Part shown: positions 13,959 through 37,274 of the stretch, in pieces
Position numbering within the stretch: the first letter of the stretch is position 1
Layout of the letters: every line of letters begins with the position of its first letter
Assembly (NCBI GenBank): GCA_023379265.1
Contig: JAMCUI010000007.1
Coordinates: 82,330 to 146,329, forward strand
Direction: 5' to 3'
Length of the DNA stretch: 64,000 nt
Source of the DNA: Patescibacteria group bacterium
GTDB taxonomy: Bacteria > Patescibacteriota > Microgenomatia > 2-02-FULL-39-11
Made by a program: the position numbers and the translations under genes
The notes under the pieces: model-generated
What the model was told of the DNA's origin: nothing
The model's input: only the letters and a program-made list of their open reading frames with translations
The model's database searches: none

Positions 13959-16900
13959 ATGACATCTCCTGAAGCAGGTGGTTTATTTGGTCAATTGAAA
14001 AATTTACTCACCCAATTATTTATAGATAAAAAGAGAATAGAAGAGGAGAAGCGTTTAAGGGAAGAGGCGCAAAGAAGCAAAATTGAGGCTGAAACTCCAG
14101 AAAATATTAGAAGAGATAGAGAACGGCATAGAGAAGAAGATGAAGAAAGAGCTTATAGAGAAAGAGCCTCAGCTGACGAAATGGCTGAAGAGGAGCAAGG
14201 GGAAATCCAAAACAGAAGAATAGGTTTAAGAAAACAAGCTATTAAAGAGGAGTTGCGCAAGGCTATTGCACAACAGGAGATGATTGCGGGAGAGCGGCAG
14301 GTCTATAAAGAATATGCTTATGTGGATTATTTAGTCAGTGATTTTAGGGCGGATACAAATCTCCGGGATGGTCTATACGCATTAATTGATGCAAATTATA
14401 GTGCAGCGCTTATCATTGAGAAGATTATAAAAGGTGGTAAGGCTCTTCATTCTGATCCGCAACAGCTTCTGGATATTGGTGCAGCTTTGTATTTCCAGGC
14501 CAGTCAATCAGGGATGGTTCCTGCTATCCAGCCAATCTTAAATGAGGTGGAAGAACGTGTCCTTCAGCTTTTCATTGATGTAAGAAAGAAAGGAATAGAA
14601 ACCAGATCTGGAGGTGTACGCGAAATTAATAACCCGGCTCAGTTTTTGGCTGATGCTGACAAAAGATATCCCCCAAATGATTTTAGGGATTTATCATCAA
14701 ATAATCCGGCGGAATGGCGTCGCGGAATACACAATATATTAAACTCTGCTCGTCCCGGGGCAGATGCTGAGTATACAAGGGAAGCTTTAGAGTCAGCAGT
14801 ATCGATAGACAGAAATGCCCCTCCTCCCCAAAAACTGGTAAATGAGGTATCCGATTTATTGCAAAAAGTTCAGGATAGAGAAAATGCCGGTGAACCTTTG
14901 TCCAGCAGCGAATTAAATGATTTAAGCGACGAGATTGACCAGGTTGGATTTAACTCTTTCCCACAGGATGTGGTTGCTGGTACAAACAGATATTTGCAGA
15001 CTGCTGCCAATATAAGAAGTTATACCGAGTCAGTCAAGAACAAATTGGCAGAAAAAGCAGTCGAACGTTTAAGATCAGAAGTGCCTAGTGTGGAACGGAA
15101 TCTGACGTCTGAGCAGTTTTTGGAGCGAATTGGACATCCTGGCGATATGGGCCGATTATTGGTCAGCAGTCCAGATGTGGCAAAGCTTTTGGTGGGCAAT
15201 ACCAAAGAAAGTTCAAGCTTTCGGTTCAAAGTTTTCCTCAGAATACACGCGGCTGTACTTACTCAGCGACGTGAGTCATTTCATGATAATTTTGGATTAT
15301 ACGAAAGGGCTGATTTTACCGCATTTATTAATCATATTAGGAATAATATGAAAGGCGTGCGGCCTGAGACGGGCCAGCCTTTTGGTGAAGCCTGGGTTGA
15401 TTGGTATGTTGGTTTGAGCAATTCCATCCGTTTATCCCGCGATATAGATTTCTGGGCTTCACAGCCTGGAGCCGATCCCGAACAATTCAACCGTTCGCTG
15501 TCTCTTTTTTTGAATGAATACAATGTTCAATTGATGAGCGTTCCGGGAGTGGAGCAGGCCTATAGGGCATATCTTAGTACGATAAAATCCATCAAAAACC
15601 ATAATGATGGCTATGTACCTCCCGCATTAGTAGAGTATTCTCCAGGTAAGATGGTTTCAGGATGGGATAATATGGCCCGAGAATGGGTAAAGAAGATGAT
15701 TTCCATGGGGCAGATACAGGACGTGGACCGTGATCCTTATGGGTTCCATAAGTTGGAAGAGAATGGGTTTACTCTGAAGCTAAAAGAGGGCCCCGAAGGA
15801 AAATTAAAAATGGAAAATATGAGCAATGAGGAGATGGCAATGTATATGACTCTTGCGAAAGGATATGGAATATCAACATGGATGTTACTGGATGAATTTG
15901 CCAACTCCAAAGTTCCAGGTTCAGATCATCCTAGATGGGGAATGACAGGTTTTCATAGTCTTGCGGCGTACGAGGGAGTCGCCCGTGCAGGAAATTATTT
16001 TGCATCAGTGGTAACGAAGTGGAAGTATACATTCAAATATTTTCATATGATGAATATGCTAGTTCCTGAACATAAAAGGAAAGTGTGGGGCGCCAGTGAT
16101 TTTAATGAAGCTAAAAAGGCATATATTGCTTATAGAAACGGTACTTTTGAGAAGGAGTTTGGAAAGGACGCAAAGCGCATGATTGATTTGGATAACTTCA
16201 GTCACTTTTCTGCTAATTTACCATTTTCAGGATGGAGACATGTGGATATGACAATAGGTTGGTCCGATAAACTTCGTGAATCTATGGGATCTGCCCATCA
16301 AATAGGTATGGCTAATGCTTTTGCTGGCGCTAAGGTAAAAGATTATTTTGTGGTTGATAAATATAAAAAGGAATTTAGGGATAAGATGAGAGAAGCAGGA
16401 CAACCTTATGCCGGTCCGCGTTTTGACGCTTTGTGGCAGGAAAGAGGATATCCAATATATAAAGCAAGGATTGAGAATGAGTGGGATAGTATAAAACATA
16501 AGGAGGAGGTTGAGGAGTTGGTTTCTAAATACGCAAAAGCTTATAAGGCTAGAGTTTGGATAGAAACCGCGATGCGTAATCCTTTGGCAATAGCCCAAAA
16601 TGTAAAAGTAAAAGTGCCAATTCCTGGATTTACTGCAGAGGAAGGTAAAAGAGATGTAAGTATCCATTTGCTTTTGGTGCAAAAAATTTTGGGAATTCCT
16701 TATGAAGATATAAAGTACGGAGACGATCCCAAAAGCCGGGAAGCAAAAGTATACGCCTCACCAACGGTTTCACAAGAAAGGTGGATGAAAGAAGCTGCTG
16801 ACTTAGAGTCTGATATAGCAGTAGTGCGTGAGATTGCGATACGTGAGAATAGGGAACTGCGTGAGTCAGATTTCAATGCCATAAGTGACGCGCATCGTAA

Positions 16901-17795
16901 GAGAGATGCTTTGGAGTATTGGAAAGCTGTGCGAAAGATGATGTTGGGAGATTTATCTCCTGATTTACATGAGCGTTTATACGAAAAGCTCGGTCTTAAA
17001 ATGTCAGAGAATGGTTATGACTACGATATTGATTGGGAAAAGATCGAGCATGTAGATCATATTGTAAATGAAATAAGTCACGGTGAAGGGATTGATTTGG
17101 GTAATTTGGAAGGAGTACGTATTCAAATTCCACATCAATTAAATAAGGAGTTGATAGATAAAGAGTGGGATGAAATGTTCAGCCCCGATGACATTTCCAT
17201 AAGAGAATTGGATATGATGAATCTCGGCTCAAGACATCTTATCAGGCGCGGAGGGGATGCACTTGCTCATTATCAGGGAGGACAACGGTTGGAAAAGTAT
17301 CTAATGTATGACCTCAAAGGCAATCCGAATCCTGAAGATTTGGCAAAAGCCTTATCGGAAGTGGCTCAGGCATATACTGGTGATGATACATTAAAAGGTT
17401 GGAGAGCGGCTGGAATGTGGGCATATGCAACGTCGAAATTTTATTCGTTTGATTATGGGCATTTGGGTTCTCCTGCACAATTGCAAGTGTATGGAACGAG
17501 AAGAGGAATTGCCGCCTGGATGGCAAACGGCAGAAGAAAATTCTGGGATACAATTGAGCATCTTGATGTTTTACCGCCTACTCATGAGGGTTTTTTGGAT
17601 TATTATGCACAACCAGAGCTCATGAATATACATGAATTACGAAGATTGTCAAAAGCTGATAATGTTGATGTTTGGATGGAAATAGTGACTTTGGGTGCGG
17701 CATTGGCTATAGCCTTGACTATTTACCGGGCATTTACCGCACCTTCAGAAGAAGAGGAAGGCGGTGGGGGAGGCGGTGGCGGGGGACATCACTGA
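13959..17795 (+). CDS. Giant hypothetical protein (1278 aa): acidic/basic coiled-coil N-terminus, single C-terminal TM helix, poly-Gly-HH tail
   Basis: Uninterrupted 3.8-kb ORF. N-terminus is highly charged (EEEKRLREEAQRSKIEAE...). C-terminus is VTLGAALAIALTIYRAF followed by EEEEGGGGGGGGGHH. No recognisable catalytic motif. Converges on and overlaps the VirB6-like gene by 7 nt. Confidence 0.6.
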   Translation: MTSPEAGGLFGQLKNLLTQLFIDKKRIEEEKRLREEAQRSKIEAETPENIRRDRERHREEDEERAYRERASADEMAEEEQGEIQNRRIGLRKQAIKEELRKAIAQQEMIAGERQVYKEYAYVDYLVSDFRADTNLRDGLYALIDANYSAALIIEKIIKGGKALHSDPQQLLDIGAALYFQASQSGMVPAIQPILNEVEERVLQLFIDVRKKGIETRSGGVREINNPAQFLADADKRYPPNDFRDLSSNNPAEWRRGIHNILNSARPGADAEYTREALESAVSIDRNAPPPQKLVNEVSDLLQKVQDRENAGEPLSSSELNDLSDEIDQVGFNSFPQDVVAGTNRYLQTAANIRSYTESVKNKLAEKAVERLRSEVPSVERNLTSEQFLERIGHPGDMGRLLVSSPDVAKLLVGNTKESSSFRFKVFLRIHAAVLTQRRESFHDNFGLYERADFTAFINHIRNNMKGVRPETGQPFGEAWVDWYVGLSNSIRLSRDIDFWASQPGADPEQFNRSLSLFLNEYNVQLMSVPGVEQAYRAYLSTIKSIKNHNDGYVPPALVEYSPGKMVSGWDNMAREWVKKMISMGQIQDVDRDPYGFHKLEENGFTLKLKEGPEGKLKMENMSNEEMAMYMTLAKGYGISTWMLLDEFANSKVPGSDHPRWGMTGFHSLAAYEGVARAGNYFASVVTKWKYTFKYFHMMNMLVPEHKRKVWGASDFNEAKKAYIAYRNGTFEKEFGKDAKRMIDLDNFSHFSANLPFSGWRHVDMTIGWSDKLRESMGSAHQIGMANAFAGAKVKDYFVVDKYKKEFRDKMREAGQPYAGPRFDALWQERGYPIYKARIENEWDSIKHKEEVEELVSKYAKAYKARVWIETAMRNPLAIAQNVKVKVPIPGFTAEEGKRDVSIHLLLVQKILGIPYEDIKYGDDPKSREAKVYASPTVSQERWMKEAADLESDIAVVREIAIRENRELRESDFNAISDAHRKRDALEYWKAVRKMMLGDLSPDLHERLYEKLGLKMSENGYDYDIDWEKIEHVDHIVNEISHGEGIDLGNLEGVRIQIPHQLNKELIDKEWDEMFSPDDISIRELDMMNLGSRHLIRRGGDALAHYQGGQRLEKYLMYDLKGNPNPEDLAKALSEVAQAYTGDDTLKGWRAAGMWAYATSKFYSFDYGHLGSPAQLQVYGTRRGIAAWMANGRRKFWDTIEHLDVLPPTHEGFLDYYAQPELMNIHELRRLSKADNVDVWMEIVTLGAALAIALTIYRAFTAPSEEEEGGGGGGGGGHH

Positions 17796-19345
17796 TGATG
17801 TCCATCTCCCTTTTTGGAGAACATACTCATTATAGATTGCAAATAGTAGAATTGGCTCATAGCTCCCATACCGGTTCCTACCGCTCCAGTAACTGGTGCA
17901 AAAGCACTACCAGCAGTGACGGGTATAGCAGCTTTCGGATGGAAAAGTTTTTTGACGGAAGCAATCATGTTTGGAGCCATAAATATAATTCCCAGCCCGA
18001 TTACTATAGCCAACGGATTACCTTTTATATGCAGTATGCTTTGATTTGTGCCCGGAATAGTGAGATTGAGCTCTCCACCTCCAGCAGGAATTAATGGTGG
18101 ACTCCAGAGGTTACCGCTCCAGGCAATAGACGTAAATATCCAACTGAAATAAATAACCGCAACAGTAGTCGGAAAAACTATTAAATTAGCAATTATGTTT
18201 TGTATCCATTGGCCGAACGCTGATCTTCCGGGAATAGCTTCCTGAAGAAGGAGAATAGGAGCAATAATGACAGTCAATAATAGTTGGATATACGAGTTTA
18301 AGAGAAGGAAAAATATCCTTATAAACGTAAATAAAAGACCAAGACCGATAATAAAAAGTATTATAGCAAGTGGAGCTCCTGCTAAAAAAAGTCCCCATCC
18401 ACCTGTAAAAGTACCCAATATTGCAAGCATTGCTTCAATAATAATTGTGATTGCGCCATAACCCAATAAGTTTGTTCCGGAACTGAAAAATGCCTGTTGG
18501 AAAAAAGATGGTACCAGTCCTAATGAGAAAACGGCTGAAGCCAGTTTCCCGATACCTGCCCACCCGCCTCCCATAAATTCCTGTTGCTGTTGGGCAACGT
18601 TTTTAAGAAAATCTGCCCCAATAATAAGATTGTTTGGAACAGCGCTCGCCATAAGTTGAATTACAATTGCTATTGCCAGATACATTAAATCGATGAAAAA
18701 ACCGGCAATCGGGTATGAGAAGGTAATTAGAAGCAAGGTAACAATAATTTTAGGTAATGCTGCCTGAATAGAAATTACTGTTTTGGGGTCAATTTTCATA
18801 CGGAATATTATCATGAAACCAATGGCGATCATAATAATAATCAGTATGGTATATGCTATATTCCTTGCAGTTTGCCAAAGTGGCAAAAGAGGGACAAGGC
18901 CTGAGAATCCAATTCCCTGAGCGTTAGCGGGTGTAGCCAAAAAGCCAGAATTTGCCAACAGGTTTTGTGTATATGCTATAGCTGAAGCCGGCGGATGGTC
19001 GTATAATGTTCCTATGGCTTGAGCCATCAGTCCTAGAGCGCTTGTGTTTTCCAGACTGCTTTGCCCATTATTTGCGCTTGATGACTGACATGGCATGAGG
19101 GCACAAGTCAATTTCCCAATCATTGTAAAAGTGTTATAGCCTATTACTCTGTCAGAAAAAATTACAGTTTGACCTGTGTTTTTTTCGACATTTTCTGCAC
19201 TTTGTTCGTTAGTGAGCATTTTTTCAAAAGAGAAATTGAAAGGATTATCAGCCGCTGAAATTTTTTTGGGTAAGATGAGAAGAAATAGAACAAAGGATAT
19301 AGATAAAATAACTAAAAGAAGCATCTTATCAGGCAGTTTAAGCAT
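17789..19345 (-). CDS. Polytopic membrane protein, VirB6/TrbL-like (type IV secretion-type)
   Basis: 518 aa. Signal/TM N-terminus, ~130-aa extracytoplasmic domain, multiple TM helices, Gly-rich C-terminal tail. Directly adjacent to six VirB2-like pilin genes. Confidence 0.45.
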   Translation of the reverse strand: MLKLPDKMLLLVILSISFVLFLLILPKKISAADNPFNFSFEKMLTNEQSAENVEKNTGQTVIFSDRVIGYNTFTMIGKLTCALMPCQSSSANNGQSSLENTSALGLMAQAIGTLYDHPPASAIAYTQNLLANSGFLATPANAQGIGFSGLVPLLPLWQTARNIAYTILIIIMIAIGFMIIFRMKIDPKTVISIQAALPKIIVTLLLITFSYPIAGFFIDLMYLAIAIVIQLMASAVPNNLIIGADFLKNVAQQQQEFMGGGWAGIGKLASAVFSLGLVPSFFQQAFFSSGTNLLGYGAITIIIEAMLAILGTFTGGWGLFLAGAPLAIILFIIGLGLLFTFIRIFFLLLNSYIQLLLTVIIAPILLLQEAIPGRSAFGQWIQNIIANLIVFPTTVAVIYFSWIFTSIAWSGNLWSPPLIPAGGGELNLTIPGTNQSILHIKGNPLAIVIGLGIIFMAPNMIASVKKLFHPKAAIPVTAGSAFAPVTGAVGTGMGAMSQFYYLQSIMSMFSKKGDGHHQ

Positions 19346-19447
19346 AACTTTATTATTCTTCTTTTTGTCAGTTATGTCAAGGAATCATCAGCTTGATTTT
19401 AATAAATTGAAATAGATTTATTTTCTACAAATATAATCTATTAAAAC

Positions 19448-19762
19448 TTATTGGGGGATTGTAAAAGTGGTAATGTTGACTCCGGTAAAACTTTCAATAA
19501 GTTTGAATATTATAAAGGCAACAGCAAAAAGGACAATTCCAATGATGGCATAGGTCATAGTTTGTTGTGCGGAAGCTGCGGCTTTTTGATCACCTCCAGA
19601 GGTAAGAAACTTAAAACCTCCAATGGTTAACATAACAAATAACGCCAAAACAGCCAGACTAATTGAAATTGTTAGAATTCTAGTAAAAACTACTTCTAAG
19701 CATTTGAAAGTTGGGATGTCTACTCCACCTATATTAAGAGTACATGTTGACCAATCAGTCAT
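19448..19762 (-). CDS. VirB2/TrbC-type (T4SS pilin-like) small membrane protein, paralog 1
   Basis: 104 aa; GGFKFLTSGGDQKAAASAQQTMTYAIIGIVLFAVAF, the GG-aromatic-x-TSGGD-x-A motif flanked by two hydrophobic helices. Confidence 0.6.
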   Translation of the reverse strand: MTDWSTCTLNIGGVDIPTFKCLEVVFTRILTISISLAVLALFVMLTIGGFKFLTSGGDQKAAASAQQTMTYAIIGIVLFAVAFIIFKLIESFTGVNITTFTIPQ

Positions 19763-19782
19763 GAAGATAAATTGGTATTAAA

Positions 19783-20172
19783 TTAAAATGGTGTCGGGAT
19801 GCTAAGATTCTGAAGGTTAAACCCAAGGAATTGTCCGGCTACCAACATGATTGCCCATGCAGCAAATACAATAAAAAGCCCCAAGAGAGCTGCTTGGATA
19901 CGGTGTTGAGCAGCTTCAACTCCAGCTTTGTCGCCTCCTGAGGTGATCCAGCCAAACCCACCCCAGATAAGGAAAATAAAGGCAGCCAGAGCGGAAACAA
20001 CCAGTATAAGACCAATAATACCGCCTATCAGTTTACCAGGATCAACTATTTTCAAATTTGGAGGTGTGGAAACACTGATGTTTACCTGGGCAAGCGCGAT
20101 TGATGGGAAAAATATAAGAGTGCTGATACTTCCTATTCCGATTGCTGATGCTAATTTTATTGCCTTTTTCAT
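19783..20172 (-). CDS. VirB2/TrbC-type pilin-like protein, paralog 2
   Basis: Signal peptide, then WGGFGWITSGGDKAGVEAAQHRIQAALLGLFIVFAAWAI. Confidence 0.6.
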   Translation of the reverse strand: MKKAIKLASAIGIGSISTLIFFPSIALAQVNISVSTPPNLKIVDPGKLIGGIIGLILVVSALAAFIFLIWGGFGWITSGGDKAGVEAAQHRIQAALLGLFIVFAAWAIMLVAGQFLGFNLQNLSIPTPF

Positions 20173-20288
20173 GATTTTACCCTTTCTTTCAGTATTATGA
20201 ATAGTTTTTTAATGCTTGTCAAGCTCTTTAGTAACAAATTTATAGCAAACAAAGAAAATTTAGTTTTTCATTATTAACAAAATAAGTG

Positions 20289-20639
20289 TTACAAAAGTTT
20301 AGGTAGACTGAGTTGGAAACCACCTCCAGCGATTGAGCCTATACCTAAGAACCTCAGGATAAGTAAATAAATTGTCCAGGCGGCAAAAACAATAAACAAA
20401 CCTAAGAGAGCGTTAGTAATTCTGTTTCGTGCGTTTTCCACACCAGTTTTATCTCCACCTGAGGAAATCCACTCCAGGCCTCCTTGTAGCAGCTGAAATA
20501 ATGTCCAGATTGAAGCAAATACGAGGATTAGTCCAACCAGACCGGAGATGAAGGTGCCTAAGATACCTCCTGCATTATCAGGGTTTGCGTTTGCAATTCC
20601 AGATACTACTGGGTTGACAATAGGATCGATATAAATCAT
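20289..20639 (-). CDS. VirB2/TrbC-type pilin-like protein, paralog 3
   Basis: Internal Met start (ATGA overlap with the upstream gene). LQGGLEWISSGGDKTGVENARNRITNALLGLFIVFAAWTI. Confidence 0.55.
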   Translation of the reverse strand: MIYIDPIVNPVVSGIANANPDNAGGILGTFISGLVGLILVFASIWTLFQLLQGGLEWISSGGDKTGVENARNRITNALLGLFIVFAAWTIYLLILRFLGIGSIAGGGFQLSLPKLL

Positions 20640-21079
20640 ATGCCAAGGTTTTGTAAAACACTTCCTGGATTTAAGATACTTAGTCCCAGCATTGATCCTA
20701 TCACTCCGATTATTGCCCAAGCAATAACAACAATTACAAGTCCGATAAGAGAATTGGTGATTTTATCTCGTGCGGCCGTCGTATCGTTTTTATCTCCACC
20801 TGCTGAAATCCACTGAAATCCTGCCGTAATAAACTGGAATATAAACCAAAGAGCAGCAATCATGGTTAAAAAACCAATGACACCGCTGATGACTTTATTT
20901 AATGTATTCCCTACATCCTCTTTAGTATTGTTCTGGCAAAGAAAATCGGCTATAACCCCAAATCCTCCTCCACACCCAAGTCCTTGACTACTGTTTGTGG
21001 TTTGTGCTTGAGCTATTTTCCCTGAGTAAACAAAAAGTAACGAAAAAGTAAAAAGTGTGATAAATAATTTGATTTTCAT
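20636..21079 (-). CDS. VirB2/TrbC-type pilin-like protein, paralog 4
   Basis: Signal peptide, Cys pair, ITAGFQWISAGGDKNDTTAARDKITNSLIGLVIVVIAWAI. Confidence 0.6.
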   Translation of the reverse strand: MKIKLFITLFTFSLLFVYSGKIAQAQTTNSSQGLGCGGGFGVIADFLCQNNTKEDVGNTLNKVISGVIGFLTMIAALWFIFQFITAGFQWISAGGDKNDTTAARDKITNSLIGLVIVVIAWAIIGVIGSMLGLSILNPGSVLQNLGI

Positions 21080-21097
21080 AATCTTACTTATATTATC

Positions 21098-21478
21098 TTA
21101 CTGCTGTAGTTGTGGTTGCAATATTGCAGTTGGGTTCTTGAAGAGCAACATGCCAATGATTGCAGCCAGAAGAAATGAAGAAACGATAATGAGTAGACCT
21201 AAAAAGGTTTGCCAGATACGTTCCCATGATTTTCCTATCGCTTTTGAGTCCCCACCCGCTGTCATAAATCCAAATCCACCAATTATCAGATTTATAAAAC
21301 CCCAGAGTCCAGCGATGATAAACACTAACTTTAATAGCGAATTTAGAAATATAAGCATACCTGTTAATTTACCGGTAGAGTCGATTCCAGATTGTATAAA
21401 GCTTGGTGGGGTGATGCAACCTATTGCAGGATCACAAGCAGCCAATATGTAATTTATGATGATCATGTTAAAAACCAA
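21098..21478 (-). CDS. VirB2/TrbC-type pilin-like protein, paralog 5
   Basis: IGGFGFMTAGGDSKAIGKSWERIWQTFLGLLIIVSSF. Confidence 0.55.
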   Translation of the reverse strand: MVFNMIIINYILAACDPAIGCITPPSFIQSGIDSTGKLTGMLIFLNSLLKLVFIIAGLWGFINLIIGGFGFMTAGGDSKAIGKSWERIWQTFLGLLIIVSSFLLAAIIGMLLFKNPTAILQPQLQQ

Positions 21479-21794
21479 GACCGCTTAACGAGCCATGTGT
21501 AACGAAGTTTATTATTTGCAATATCCAGTATGCACCAAACATGGTGACAAGTCCAATTATGGCATAGGTTAGTGCCTGTTTTTTACTTTCAGCCTCATGA
21601 GAATCTCCTCCTCCGGCACCGGAAATCATACCTATGCCAGCTACGATTATAATTACGAAGGAGATGATTCCACCCAATAGTAATATGTTGGGTAAGAGAT
21701 GGGAAACAATATCAGAAAGTGAACTAAACCCTCCATTTCCGTTTTCACCGGACAACTGCCAAACTTTTGATATGTCTACCTGTGCCAATCGCAT
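21468..21794 (-). CDS. VirB2/TrbC-type pilin-like protein, paralog 6
   Basis: IVAGIGMISGAGGGDSHEAESKKQALTYAIIGLVTMFGAYWI. First gene of the minus-strand array, divergent from the sigma factor. Confidence 0.5.
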   Translation of the reverse strand: MRLAQVDISKVWQLSGENGNGGFSSLSDIVSHLLPNILLLGGIISFVIIIVAGIGMISGAGGGDSHEAESKKQALTYAIIGLVTMFGAYWILQIINFVTHGSLSGLGF

Positions 21795-21936
21795 AATTTT
21801 AGTCTAGTATTTTGTATATATGTTTTCAACCTTCTAAGTAGCCTTTATACCTTCCTATATTAGGTTTGACAGAATATTCCTAGTTTGTCAACTTCTTATA
21901 TAAAGATCTATAATATATACCTTATATATTATATCT

Positions 21937-22506
21937 TTGAGTGAAATTATATTATTTTCCGACAAATATATGATGAGCGAAAAGGAAATCATAAATGGTA
22001 TTCTTCATGGTAACGAAAAAACGCTGCGTTTTTTTTACCTCTATTATCAGCCAAGACTCGGAGCTTATCTTAAAAATAAAGTATCAAATGAGGAGGATGC
22101 TGAGGAGATTTTGCAGGATACTCTTTTGGCTACCATTGAAGGACTGCGTGATTTTGCCTTCCGGTCGTCACTTTTTACATTTATTTGCAGCATAGCAAAT
22201 CATAAGGTGATTGATTATTACAGAAAGAAAAAGATCAAAAATGTTGTCTTTTCTCATATCCCAGATATTGAGCCTCTTATAGCTACATTGTCCGGTCCTG
22301 AGGATGACTTTAATGATCAACTCCTGAAACAGAAGATAATAGCTACATTCAGAAAAATTGCCCCGCGGTACAGTCTCATATTAAAACTGAAATATGTCTA
22401 CGGTTATTCAGTTGAAGAAATTGCCAGAAAGCTATCAATTTCCTTCAAAAGCGCCGAAAGCCAGCTTTTTCGCGCACGAAGAGCTTTCGAGTTAGCTTAT
22501 TCATAA
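21937..22506 (+). CDS. ECF-type RNA polymerase sigma-70 family factor
   Basis: Region 2 (ILQDTLLATIEGLRDFAFRSSLFTFICSIANHKVIDYYRKKK) and region 4 HTH (YVYGYSVEEIARKLSISFKSAESQLFRARRAFE). Confidence 0.8.
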   Translation: MSEIILFSDKYMMSEKEIINGILHGNEKTLRFFYLYYQPRLGAYLKNKVSNEEDAEEILQDTLLATIEGLRDFAFRSSLFTFICSIANHKVIDYYRKKKIKNVVFSHIPDIEPLIATLSGPEDDFNDQLLKQKIIATFRKIAPRYSLILKLKYVYGYSVEEIARKLSISFKSAESQLFRARRAFELAYS

Positions 22507-22518
22507 TATAAATAGTTT

Positions 22519-22752
22519 ATGGATAATGATAAAACATACCAGCTTTTAGTTGATAAAATGCATGAAGTTGCAGCTATCCCTACTCAGGAGGTGGGGAATT
22601 TTACTATTGCTTATAAGAAACTTGTGCCTTTCTTAAAGTATTATCCCTGGAAAAGCGCTATTATACTTTCTTTTATATCTGTTTCTTTACTTTACTTGAT
22701 TTTCGGAACATTTCTAGTTAAAGTTGCTTCCATGCTTCAATTCGGGTTTTAA
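22519..22752 (+). CDS. Putative anti-sigma factor (small, C-terminal TM helix)
   Basis: 77 aa with a single C-terminal TM helix, immediately downstream of the ECF sigma gene. Position-based call. Confidence 0.35.
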   Translation: MDNDKTYQLLVDKMHEVAAIPTQEVGNFTIAYKKLVPFLKYYPWKSAIILSFISVSLLYLIFGTFLVKVASMLQFGF

Positions 22753-22760
22753 CTTCTGTT

Positions 22761-23390
22761 ATGGATGTGTTTGTTATTACCTTTGTCCGTCTTCTTTTCT
22801 TTTTCACAAAGAATCTAATTGGATGTTTTAACACTCCATACCTAACCTACAGAAAGCTTTTGGGAGAAAAATCTGGAATATACCAGACCGGTTTTATTTT
22901 TATTCTTGTGATTTCCTATTTTATTTTCGCTTCAGCTTTAAGGGTTGGCGTACATAGTCCTCTTCTTTTAACTTTAAGGTTGAATCTTCTTTTGTTCTCA
23001 GCCGCGATTGGATTTATAGCTATGTTATTTGTCATATTTATGTTAGGGAAAACGATCGGAAGTAGCGGTAGATTCATTGATGTATATAAACTTTGGTCCT
23101 TCACTCTTATCCCGACAATAGTTTGGTTTTTTACAACTTCACTACTTTATATAATTATTCCACCTCCAAGAACATTAAGTTTTTTGGGTAAGCTATTTAG
23201 CGTTGTCTTTATCGCTTTTTCAGTCTCCGTCTTTCTTTGGAAGGCAATATTATATTATTTAACTTTGAGGTTTGCCCTCAGACTTGATCTTGCAAAGATC
23301 GGTTTTATGACTGTAGTCATATTGCCTTTACTTGTAGTTTATTCTGTGTTGATGTATAAGCTGGGGATTTTTAGAGTCCCATTTATTTAG
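22761..23390 (+). CDS. Hypothetical polytopic membrane protein
   Basis: 209 aa, ~5 TM helices, third gene of the sigma/anti-sigma operon. Confidence 0.4.
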   Translation: MDVFVITFVRLLFFFTKNLIGCFNTPYLTYRKLLGEKSGIYQTGFIFILVISYFIFASALRVGVHSPLLLTLRLNLLLFSAAIGFIAMLFVIFMLGKTIGSSGRFIDVYKLWSFTLIPTIVWFFTTSLLYIIIPPPRTLSFLGKLFSVVFIAFSVSVFLWKAILYYLTLRFALRLDLAKIGFMTVVILPLLVVYSVLMYKLGIFRVPFI

Positions 23391-33132: not shown

Positions 33133-33441
33133 CTACTGTATTTTTAAGATAAACTGCACTATTTGGACTATCCAGTACGCCACGAATATGAGAATAAAAC
33201 CCAGTAATGCATTTGTAATTTTATTTTTTCCCGACTCTGCCTTTTTAGGATCGCCCATTGAAGTGAGAAAATCAAAACCGCCCCAAACTAAGTATAACAA
33301 AAGAAAGACTCCCGCAACCGGAAAAACAATCCTATTTGTGGCCTGTGTGACAATAGATGCTAAATTTGGAAATCTATCAGCTGGTAAAGGCCCTACTATT
33401 TGTTGTCCACCAGGGAGATTTAATATTTGAGCAATTTTCAT
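33133..33441 (-). CDS. VirB2/TrbC-type pilin-like small protein
   Basis: 102 aa; VWGGFDFLTSMGDPKKAESGKNKITNALLGFILIFVAYWIV. Confidence 0.55.
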   Translation of the reverse strand: MKIAQILNLPGGQQIVGPLPADRFPNLASIVTQATNRIVFPVAGVFLLLYLVWGGFDFLTSMGDPKKAESGKNKITNALLGFILIFVAYWIVQIVQFILKIQ

Positions 33442-33476
33442 AATTCAATATTATATTAAAATTAGTACTATCTCAA

Positions 33477-34808
33477 TTATCCAAATCCCGGAATTTTGAA
33501 AATATCGACACCGATAAACTTTAATAAAAATACTGAGAATATGATGAGAAATAATCCTGATAATGATGAAATAATTATCTGACGGGCCTCCTCAATCTGT
33601 TCTGTATTTCCGGCAGACGTCAATATCATAAAGGCACCATATATAAAATATAGGAAAGATATACCACCAGCCATTCCTACGCCAGTAGTGAATATATAAT
33701 CTTTTATCAGGGCAGTGAAATCCAACGGTATACACCCGATAGCTGTCCACATTTTTCTACCACTGGCCAAACAAGCAGAACACTTACTTTGATATTGTGG
33801 GTCCAATTGATCGCAAAGAGGCTTAATATCAGGAACAAAAGCAACCGTAGGATGTACTGCTCCCGGGCAACCTGGACATGTATTACAACCATTGGAGCAT
33901 GTTCCTGTGTTGCAAGGAGAAAGTGAACAGAATGACGGAATAGTGGGAGTGAGTATAGGGGTAGAGGTGGGATTTGGAGTTGCGCCTTTTGGTGCTATTT
34001 CAAAAGTAGTGGAGCACATCTGCTGAGCGTTTTTATAAATAAGTAAATCGTGATCAATTAAAAATCGTAAAGTGGCATTCATAACACCAAAAGATGCAAT
34101 TGATACTGCTGTTGCGGTAGGATCAATTTCCAGTTGATAGACTGATGTATTATGTTGTCCGGCAGTTCTCAGATTTATGGGAATTGGCTCCTCAATTGTT
34201 GAGGTGGGACTTTCTACAGCTACTTGATTACCATCAATGGTAATTCTAAGGGGATTTGGTATTGATATGGAAAATCCAGGTATGCTGACTGGTACAAAGA
34301 AAGTAGCATTTTTTATATCAGACGCAACCACTTTCCATGAAGCATCGTCGACATCCCCCAAACCTGTGTAATTTGCCTCGATTTTACATGTAGGATTTAA
34401 AGCATTTATTGTAATTGTGCTGATATTGCATACTTGTATATTCTGATTGGCTAATTTATATATTAATTCAACAGAGTGGGTGCCTGGACTTGTGAGAAAT
34501 GGTCCACAAATTCCATTGTTGTTTGTTGAAAATACGGGATTATTCGGATCAGACACTACAGGGTTTCCACATGCTTCATTTTCTGGAAAAGAAAAAACCA
34601 ATTGTCCTCCTGAGGGGTATTTTGACAGCTCCTGTTGGACAATAGCTCCATCAAATTTTAGTGAAATACTGTTTACGGGAGCAGTCAATGGTGGTCTAGG
34701 ATTTACTATCAAATTGCAGTCTGCAGCAGCACTTGTTTTTGTGACTGAAGAAAAGAAAAAAAATGTTAAGAAAATGAGGCAGACGGCTGCTTTAACTGTA
34801 TTTCGCAT
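33477..34808 (-). CDS. Secreted cysteine-rich protein fused to a C-terminal VirB2/TrbC-type pilin-like module
   Basis: 443 aa. Signal peptide, ~350-aa Cys-rich extracellular region (CNTGTCSNGCNTCPGCPG...), then C-terminus LTSAGNTEQIEEARQIIISSLSGLFLIIFSVFLLKFIGVDIFKIPGFG. Confidence 0.55.
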   Translation of the reverse strand: MRNTVKAAVCLIFLTFFFFSSVTKTSAAADCNLIVNPRPPLTAPVNSISLKFDGAIVQQELSKYPSGGQLVFSFPENEACGNPVVSDPNNPVFSTNNNGICGPFLTSPGTHSVELIYKLANQNIQVCNISTITINALNPTCKIEANYTGLGDVDDASWKVVASDIKNATFFVPVSIPGFSISIPNPLRITIDGNQVAVESPTSTIEEPIPINLRTAGQHNTSVYQLEIDPTATAVSIASFGVMNATLRFLIDHDLLIYKNAQQMCSTTFEIAPKGATPNPTSTPILTPTIPSFCSLSPCNTGTCSNGCNTCPGCPGAVHPTVAFVPDIKPLCDQLDPQYQSKCSACLASGRKMWTAIGCIPLDFTALIKDYIFTTGVGMAGGISFLYFIYGAFMILTSAGNTEQIEEARQIIISSLSGLFLIIFSVFLLKFIGVDIFKIPGFG

Positions 34809-34847
34809 GTTATTGCTAAATCAAAAGGCGCAATTCAATTTGTAAGT

Positions 34848-35333
34848 CTAACTGAACCCTGGAATTCTAAAGATGTCAAAACCAACAAAATGCAAGAGAA
34901 ATACGGAGAATAATATGAGGAGGATTCCTACAATTGAAGAAAAAATCATATCCTTCCCGTTTCTAAGACGTTCAGGGTCACCTGAGGATGTAAGAACAGT
35001 TGCGCTGCCTGCAAGAACTGCCAGAAAAGCAATCCCTCCTGAGACTCCAAAAACAATAGAGAGTATTGATTTGACAAAAAATTCAGGTTTAGTGGAAAGA
35101 CATCCTAAGACTGTATAGTAAGTACCCTTTTGCTCATTTCCGTTCAGGTCATAAAGACATGTATGACACTGGTCCCAGTTGGGAGGTTTTGGATTGAATG
35201 CCGGGTTACACCAACCGCAAAGATCACACGTAGGCTGATCAGTTGGCGTTGCGTCTTGAGCTTTTACCAGGTTTACACTAAATAAAAGAGCGATGAAAAA
35301 AATAAATAAAAATATAAGTGTTTTGTTGGGCAT
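34848..35333 (-). CDS. Smaller Cys-rich protein with the same C-terminal pilin-like module
   Basis: 161 aa. Signal peptide, Cys-rich 60 aa (CDLCGWCNP...CHTC), C-terminus LTSSGDPERLRNGKDMIFSSIVGILLILFSVFLLHFVGFDIFRIPGFS, near-identical to the tail of 33477..34808. Confidence 0.55.
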   Translation of the reverse strand: MPNKTLIFLFIFFIALLFSVNLVKAQDATPTDQPTCDLCGWCNPAFNPKPPNWDQCHTCLYDLNGNEQKGTYYTVLGCLSTKPEFFVKSILSIVFGVSGGIAFLAVLAGSATVLTSSGDPERLRNGKDMIFSSIVGILLILFSVFLLHFVGFDIFRIPGFS

Positions 35334-35414: not shown

Positions 35415-37274
35415 TTGTCTTATACCTCTTTAACTATTCATGATATGTTTCTTAGACCTTCAAATAATAAACAAAAGAAGTTATTCTTACTGTTCAAATC
35501 AGACAAGAGGATCAGAAAGTTAGTCTTAATTGCAGGGAGCCTCTTTTTGATGATTGTGTTTCTTTTTCCTTCTTTATTTACCGCATTACATCCTGTAATT
35601 GCCGATGATTGCAATCAGACATGTTTTGATCAATTAACAAAGCAGATTGGCGATTTGAACCGTGCTTTACAGTTGTCTATTGCTGCAACAACCCCTTTGG
35701 AAAAAAATCTTGACCAATTGCAGAACAATCTGGCTGATATTAAACAAAAAATAGCTGCAATTGAGGCTGATGTTGAACAGAAACAAAAAGAGGTGGATGA
35801 GGGAGACAAGTTGTTAGTTTTAGCTCAAGACCTTCTAGGCAAAAAGGTGCGTGCACTTTATAAAACATCCTCATATTTTGGAGGAAGCGGACTTTTTATT
35901 CTCTTAAATAACAATCTGTCACAATCCGTCAGAGAATTTGGTTATCAGAGGAAATTGATGGAGGACGACAGGGATGCAATTATACAGGTAGTACTTTATG
36001 TACAGGATCTTGAAGTAAAGAAAAAGAATCTCGAGGAAGAGAAGACGCGTTTGGCACAAGTTAAGGATGAAACTGACAAGCAAGCAGTAACACTTCAGAC
36101 AGTTATTGAAGGTGCAAAAAAATACCAGGCAGATTTGACTTCGCAAATAGCCCAGTTGACAGCCCGTCAACAGCAAATATTGGCACAAAGGCTAGCAAGC
36201 TTAAATATTCCACTTTCAGCAGCTTCGATGGGTCGGTGTGACAGTGATCTCACTAATGGGCGTGACCCTGGATTTTCCCCAAAATTTGCTGTCTTTACCT
36301 ATGGTGTGCCAAATAGGGTTGGACTCAATCAGTGGGGAGCCTATGGGAGGGCAAGAGCGGGTCAGGGATACGATCAGATACTTCATTCTTACTATAATTT
36401 TGACGGCTATAAAGATTGGGATACTAATACAAAGATTAATGTTGATGGTTACGGCAGCTATAACCTTGAAGATTATGTGAAAAGGGTTTACGAAGTACCA
36501 AATTCGTGGGGAGACGGTGGCGGTATGGAAGCGTTGAAAGCCCAGGCGATTGCCGCAAGATCCTATGCTCTGGCTTATACCAATAACGGATCGGGTTCCA
36601 TTTGCACATCGGAAAGTTGTCAAGTATTTCAGTCTCAAGACAAAGGAGGAAACTGGGATGCGGCAGTCGATGCCACTCGTGGAAAAGTGATGGTTCAGGG
36701 AGGCAACCCTATTAAAGCCTGGTTTTCGTCAACGCATGGCGGATATGTCTTTAGCTCTGGGGATGTCGGATGGAGTAATACTTCATGGACAAAGAATGCA
36801 CGCGATACCACAGGAAATGTAGGTAGTTTTTCAGATTTGCAAAATACTTCTTATGATAAAGATTCTCCTTGGTTTTATTGTGATTGGGGATCGCGTTCGG
36901 AGTATAATAAGACTGCTTGGTTAAAACCCGATGAGTTAGCTGATATTGTAAATGTTTTAATGTTGGTAAAAAGGGACTCAGGGATAGCAGAGCATCTTTA
37001 CCAAACTGATCAACCCAATCCCGCTGGTACCGACACTTGGGATAAAAGTCGCGTAAAACAGGAATTGCAAAGTCGTGGAGGATCACCTTATAACACTATT
37101 TCAGATGTATCAGTTAGCGCAGATTTTGGATCGGGTAGGGTAACAGGAGTGACTGTTTCCGGAGATGCAGGATCCAATACTTTTGACGGAAGTGATTTCA
37201 AGAACTATTTTAATCTTCGTGCCCCTGCCAATATTCAGATTGTCGGTCCGTTATATAATATTGAAAAGAGGTAG
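35415..37274 (+). CDS. SpoIID/LytB-domain peptidoglycan hydrolase-like protein with N-terminal coiled coil
   Basis: NRVGLNQWGAYGRARAGQGYDQILHSYY and AIAARSYAL are SpoIID/LytB hallmarks. N-terminal 250 aa is coiled-coil (EnvC-like). Confidence 0.7.
   Translation: MSYTSLTIHDMFLRPSNNKQKKLFLLFKSDKRIRKLVLIAGSLFLMIVFLFPSLFTALHPVIADDCNQTCFDQLTKQIGDLNRALQLSIAATTPLEKNLDQLQNNLADIKQKIAAIEADVEQKQKEVDEGDKLLVLAQDLLGKKVRALYKTSSYFGGSGLFILLNNNLSQSVREFGYQRKLMEDDRDAIIQVVLYVQDLEVKKKNLEEEKTRLAQVKDETDKQAVTLQTVIEGAKKYQADLTSQIAQLTARQQQILAQRLASLNIPLSAASMGRCDSDLTNGRDPGFSPKFAVFTYGVPNRVGLNQWGAYGRARAGQGYDQILHSYYNFDGYKDWDTNTKINVDGYGSYNLEDYVKRVYEVPNSWGDGGGMEALKAQAIAARSYALAYTNNGSGSICTSESCQVFQSQDKGGNWDAAVDATRGKVMVQGGNPIKAWFSSTHGGYVFSSGDVGWSNTSWTKNARDTTGNVGSFSDLQNTSYDKDSPWFYCDWGSRSEYNKTAWLKPDELADIVNVLMLVKRDSGIAEHLYQTDQPNPAGTDTWDKSRVKQELQSRGGSPYNTISDVSVSADFGSGRVTGVTVSGDAGSNTFDGSDFKNYFNLRAPANIQIVGPLYNIEKR

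Follow-up and report, generated by a model that had tools for sequence, protein, structure and literature searches.

Six VirB2/TrbC-type pilin-like genes in tandem beside a VirB6-like gene, divergent from an ECF sigma factor gene and with no secretion ATPase gene alongside, raise the question of whether such an array builds a filament of its own or serves a T4SS encoded elsewhere. The array lies in a 64,000-nucleotide stretch of DNA, here called the window, from a Gottesmanbacteria-type bacterium of the class Microgenomatia. From the protein families, gene order, promoters and selection seen here, and from the linkage of the genes in related loci, the region was judged very probably to be the pilin and platform module of a chromosomal Patescibacteria-type T4SS in this Gottesmanbacteria-like bacterium. 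In Microgenomatia, arrays of 2–11 VirB2-like pilin genes are abundant, virB4 lies near dnaA and relaxase is absent (PMC12102498); in Southlakia epibionticum, the pilin series is reported to be essential (PMC10633639; PMC12857230).

The six-gene array and its VirB6-like partner

All six predicted open reading frames were present as consecutive minus-strand genes (19448–21794), and each matched Pfam PF18895 (T4SS_pilin) with E values from 1.8e-8 to 2.9e-4, four of the six above the gathering threshold.

21468..21794, minus strand: pilin 1, 108 aa; PF18895 E 7.4e-7, weak PF04956 TrbC E 1.7e-3
21098..21445, minus strand: pilin 2, 115 aa; PF18895 E 2e-4, under gathering score
20636..21079, minus strand: pilin 3, 147 aa; PF18895 E 1.8e-8
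20289..20639, minus strand: pilin 4, 116 aa (gene call); PF18895 E 3.5e-7
19783..20172, minus strand: pilin 5, 129 aa; PF18895 E 2.9e-4, pilin-core HMM E 4.4e-31
19448..19762, minus strand: pilin 6, 104 aa; PF18895 E 2.8e-8
17789..19345, minus strand: VirB6-like polytopic membrane protein, 518 aa, by fold matches
13959..17795, plus strand: orphan protein, 1278 aa; C-terminal TM helix, poly-Gly tail

The proteins share a module of TM1, the motif G-G-F-x-(W/F)-(I/L)-(T/S)-(S/A)-G-G-D-(K/Q), a polar stretch and TM2, at pairwise identities of 17–45% (mean 27%); among the six, only pilin 1 gave the TrbC match. For pilin 2, the length was taken from the gene call on an identical contig, the longest ORF beginning at 21478, and the pilin-core HMM, which was built in this analysis, gave E 1.2e-29. 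A signal peptide had been proposed for every paralog, but the classical Sec type was found in pilins 3 and 5 only, pilins 1, 2, 4 and 6 having short N-terminal tails without one. Likewise, the several expected ATGA-type overlaps came down to a single true one, read from the sequence at 20636–20639 (pilin 3 stop/pilin 4 start), which suggests translational coupling.

Comparison of orthologs revealed features particular to several of the paralogs. Pilin 1, with two TM helices and 42–59% identity to its positional orthologs, has a short conserved N-terminus (M..VYA/V-D-I or MRLAQVDISK); pilin 2 orthologs conserve an N-terminal DPIG motif, and pilin 3 carries a conserved Cys pair ahead of the pilin domain. 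Orthology at two-pilin loci identified pilin 5 as one of the two paralogs retained there. Pilin 6, the most conserved paralog, closes the array in nearly all cases and has a conserved N-terminal Cys pair; 104 homologs were found, nearly all with PF18895. Its AF2 model (pLDDT 82) consists of two long helices (21–54 and 59–93). Against solved structures the pilin model gave no significant match, the most probable being the Aeropyrum pernix conjugation pilus (probability 0.69, E 2.3), and a profile of 50 pilins found no solved pilin by sequence. The want of a signal peptide in four of the six and of a significant solved-structure match were both counted against the reading as a T4SS module. Judged from sequence, the assignment of the six proteins as VirB2/TrbC-superfamily pilin-like paralogs is supported.

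The adjacent 518-aa protein was polytopic as predicted, with an N-terminal anchor and roughly seven to eight more hydrophobic segments. It had no match in a Pfam search and belongs to a large Microgenomatia family without a Pfam model; the best fold matches of its model, ranked top in the PDB by two independent programs, were VirB6-family TrwI/VirB6 and DotA, so that a VirB6-like identity is supported at the level of the modelled fold. A pilin array lies directly upstream of this gene in 28 of 30 informative loci. The 1278-aa gene is convergent with it (7-nt overlap) and adjoins it in most Gottesmanbacteria-type loci, being a conserved neighbour in Gottesmanbacteria only. Its product showed neither a Pfam match nor a Walker A motif, nor homology to the convergent genes at Daviesbacteria-type loci, and whether it is part of the T4SS is uncertain.

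Positional orthology and an apparently split ancestral locus

Beyond the six predicted genes, three more with pilin domains were found at 33133–35333, bringing the total in the window to nine.

34848..35333, minus strand: pilin-domain protein 7, 161 aa; PF18895 E 7.5e-6
33477..34808, minus strand: pilin-domain protein 8, 443 aa; PF18895 E 4e-3 (residues 377–432), pilin-core HMM E 4.6e-24
33133..33441, minus strand: pilin 9, 102 aa; PF18895 E 4.2e-11 (43 bits), weak TrbC E 0.015
35415..37274, plus strand: SpoIID-domain protein, 619 aa; PF08486 SpoIID E 7e-16

Pilin 7 has a signal peptide, then a Cys-rich segment and a C-terminal pilin domain, and is orthologous to the gene that opens the contiguous arrays of relatives (best BLASTP at position 1 in L026 and L030–L038). 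Pilin 8, whose best matches were also at array position 1 of relatives, fuses a C-terminal pilin domain to a large secreted N-terminal domain, and pilin 9 best matched position 2 of the L026 array. Window pilins 7/8, 9, 1, 2, 3–5 and 6 are colinear with L026 positions 1, 2, 3, 4, 7 and 8. The SpoIID-like gene is divergent from pilin 7, and its orthologs (E 1e-64 to 1e-151) flank the arrays at seven Daviesbacteria-type loci; its product may be a cell-wall-remodelling partner in a VirB1-like role. Pilins 7–9 and the SpoIID-like gene (33–37 kb) share one ancestral locus with the six-gene array, and the ECF-sigma/mevalonate block appears to have divided that locus.

Orthology by array position is ancient among these paralogs, and the purifying selection on them is strong: best matches fell at the same array position in 399 of 432 cases (92% concordance), pilins were closer to positional orthologs of other species (42–69% identity) than to array neighbours, and pilin dN/dS was 0.014–0.038 as against 0.08–0.14 for mevalonate genes, the reverse of the diversifying selection considered originally. 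Given this age, retained order and constraint, the paralogs most likely fill distinct structural roles without redundancy (as major, minor, tip or base subunits) and do not act as antigenic variants.

The same strict positional orthology and constraint across nine paralogs would also suit a short trans-envelope channel, in which the pilin-like proteins are stoichiometric membrane or stalk parts, each paralog with a fixed place, and no extended pilus is made. The large ectodomains fused to some paralogs agree with this, as does the usual lack of pili in monoderm T4SSs (PMC12102498). Members of the VirB2/TrbC pilin superfamily are, however, known to polymerise (Pfam annotation); our results do not discriminate a short stalk from a long pilus, and we regard the channel as a possible, if less favoured, arrangement. 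It is unlikely that the array supplies major pilins able to replace one another for antigenic or host-range variation, a model put forward for the VirB2 paralogs of Bartonella and Anaplasma: the great divergence among the paralogs fits it and it has been suggested for Patescibacteria (PMC12102498), but the proximity to positional orthologs, the dN/dS values below those of flanking housekeeping genes, the single conserved upstream promoter with the ATGA overlap, and the reported essentiality of the Southlakia pilin series (PMC10633639) all speak against it.

The VirB4 module and the promoters

The original prediction, that no ATPase lay within 20 kb, was literally true, but an ATPase-less system is not supported. 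Contig L006, 100% identical to the window across 12,412 nt, added 7.3 kb on the left, so that 71 kb were examined. Beside dnaN-dnaA, 0.7–6.4 kb left of window base 1, this extension encodes a PrgI/VirB3-like protein (PrgI domain, E 5.7e-9), a TrsD-like protein, VirB4 (P-loop_TraG, 3e-29) and a 500-aa gene. The best solved relative of VirB4 was Thermoanaerobacter VirB4 (4ag5, E 4.8e-48). VirB4 ends 2.2 kb before base 1; because the module and the array lie about 21.7 kb apart on opposite strands, their co-function is inferred from relatives. In eight related loci the pilin array, VirB6-like gene, PrgI, TrsD-like gene and VirB4 are contiguous in that order, and a ninth keeps the order up to its end after the TrsD-like gene; these single-cluster relatives are Daviesbacteria-type. 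Of VirB4 and VirD4, both proposed as targets of a search beyond the window, only the former was found in these 7.3 kb. In the 71 kb, no relaxase, coupling protein (VirD4) or integrase was found, in line with the earlier view that the locus departs from the canonical conjugative type, nor were VirB8 or VirB1 homologs.

Two promoters were recognised.

21801..21829, minus strand: pilin array promoter TTGAAA-N17-TAGACT, ending 6 nt before the pilin 1 ATG
19352..19380, minus strand: the VirB6-like gene's own promoter TTGACA-N17-AATAAT, ending 6 nt before the ATG

The former is kept as TTGACAAA-N17-TAGACT in most of nine related loci, with variant -10 boxes in two, and the latter has a conserved counterpart in the equivalent position at some 14 Gottesmanbacteria-type loci. 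From their sequences, both are read as conserved promoters of sigma-70 type in a leaderless-type layout, the array promoter not being ECF-type.

These results bear on the idea of a stand-alone surface filament or adhesion system, independent of any secretion ATPase and under the control of the divergent ECF sigma/anti-sigma pair. The predicted sigma factor (Sigma70_r2 and Sigma70_r4_2), single-TM 77-aa putative anti-sigma and Yip1-domain membrane protein were indeed found, and they adjoin the array in 13 Gottesmanbacteria-type loci, which together with the ATPase-free 20 kb favours this idea. Yet the sigma gene adjoins the array only in a Gottesmanbacteria subset, being absent beside two-pilin and all Daviesbacteria-type loci; it is the first gene of a tightly spaced mevalonate/UPPS operon; its upstream motif RTG-N16/17-CGACWWA is not repeated between genes elsewhere in the window; and the array promoter is of sigma-70 type (TTGACA-N17-TAGACT). 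The ECF sigma gene adjoins the pilin array but is unrelated to it, and the stand-alone system, largely refuted by the VirB4 module, its linkage in relatives and the promoters, is highly improbable. That the region belongs to an integrated conjugative or other mobile element would fit its T4SS genes but is hardly credible, since it occupies a chromosomal site around dnaA, dnaN, rnpA and yidC, syntenic with core metabolism, of uniform GC content, conserved across a class and with no relaxase, coupling protein or integrase found in 71 kb.

Proposed mechanism and comparison with known systems

The T4SS pieces are scattered around the replication origin over some 44 kb: besides the VirB4 module, the six pilins and the divergent VirB6-like protein lie at 17.8–21.8 kb, and the three pilin-domain genes and the SpoIID-like gene at 33.1–37.3 kb. 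Membrane topology, pilus assembly, substrate and host-interaction role are what we infer, with the R388 T4SS model as the analogy for the mechanism. Transcribed from the putative sigma-70-type, leaderless-type promoters, the pilins would each enter the cytoplasmic membrane as a helical hairpin, whose two ends face outwards and whose short GGD-K loop faces inwards. Extraction and polymerisation on the VirB6 platform would follow, driven by a VirB4 hexamer that the VirB3-like protein tethers, and would yield a pilus or conduit through the monoderm envelope toward a host cell. Against this reading stands that, to our knowledge, no T4SS-made pilus has been seen in any patescibacterium; the distance between the modules and their opposite strands also count against it, as does the lack of VirD4, VirB8 and VirB1 homologs in the 71 kb.

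With R388 Trw and Agrobacterium VirB (MPF-T), the present system shares a helical-hairpin pilin in which two hydrophobic helices flank a short polar loop, a polytopic VirB6-like protein (best structural matches TrwI and DotA), and a VirB4 ATPase with a VirB3-like partner. It differs in its monoderm host, in nine pilin paralogs instead of one, most without a long signal peptide, and in that VirB7, VirB9, VirB10, VirB5, VirB11, VirD4 and relaxase were not found in the 71 kb; sequence similarity to TrbC/VirB2 is marginal (E 1.7e-3 at best). The PrgI-family and TrsD-like proteins and a VirB4 nearest that of Firmicutes (4ag5) recall Gram-positive MPF-FATA systems (pCF10 Prg, pGO1 Trs), which have no VirB2 pilins but do have relaxase, coupling protein and adhesins such as PrgB, the three not found here. 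The VirB2 arrays of Bartonella and Anaplasma are also tandem, divergent and tied to a T4SS used for host interaction; theirs are thought to serve antigenic variation, whereas ours consist of conserved positional orthologs under strong purifying selection.

Closest are the Patescibacteria-clade T4SSs with pilin arrays (Quinonero-Coronel et al. 2025, PMC12102498; Southlakia SEML1_0006-0019, Wang et al. 2023, PMC10633639). Shared with them are a VirB4 nearest the solved Gram-positive VirB4 with PrgI/VirB3-like and TrsD-like genes adjoining, its place next to dnaN, dnaA and rnpA, divergent PF18895 pilins (mean identity 27% here, 25% reported), the absence of relaxase and coupling protein nearby, and a VirB6 undetectable by HMM in Microgenomatia. 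Unlike in Southlakia, where the pilins are reported inside the T4SS cluster, three pieces surround oriC here, and unlike in the published systems, the VirB6-like partner is recognisable by fold only. Beyond PMC12102498, PMC10633639 and PMC12857230, our analysis describes the orthology by array position, the purifying selection, the promoters and the flanking SpoIID-like gene, together with the place of pilins 7–9 in the same ancestral locus and its apparent split by the ECF-sigma/mevalonate block.

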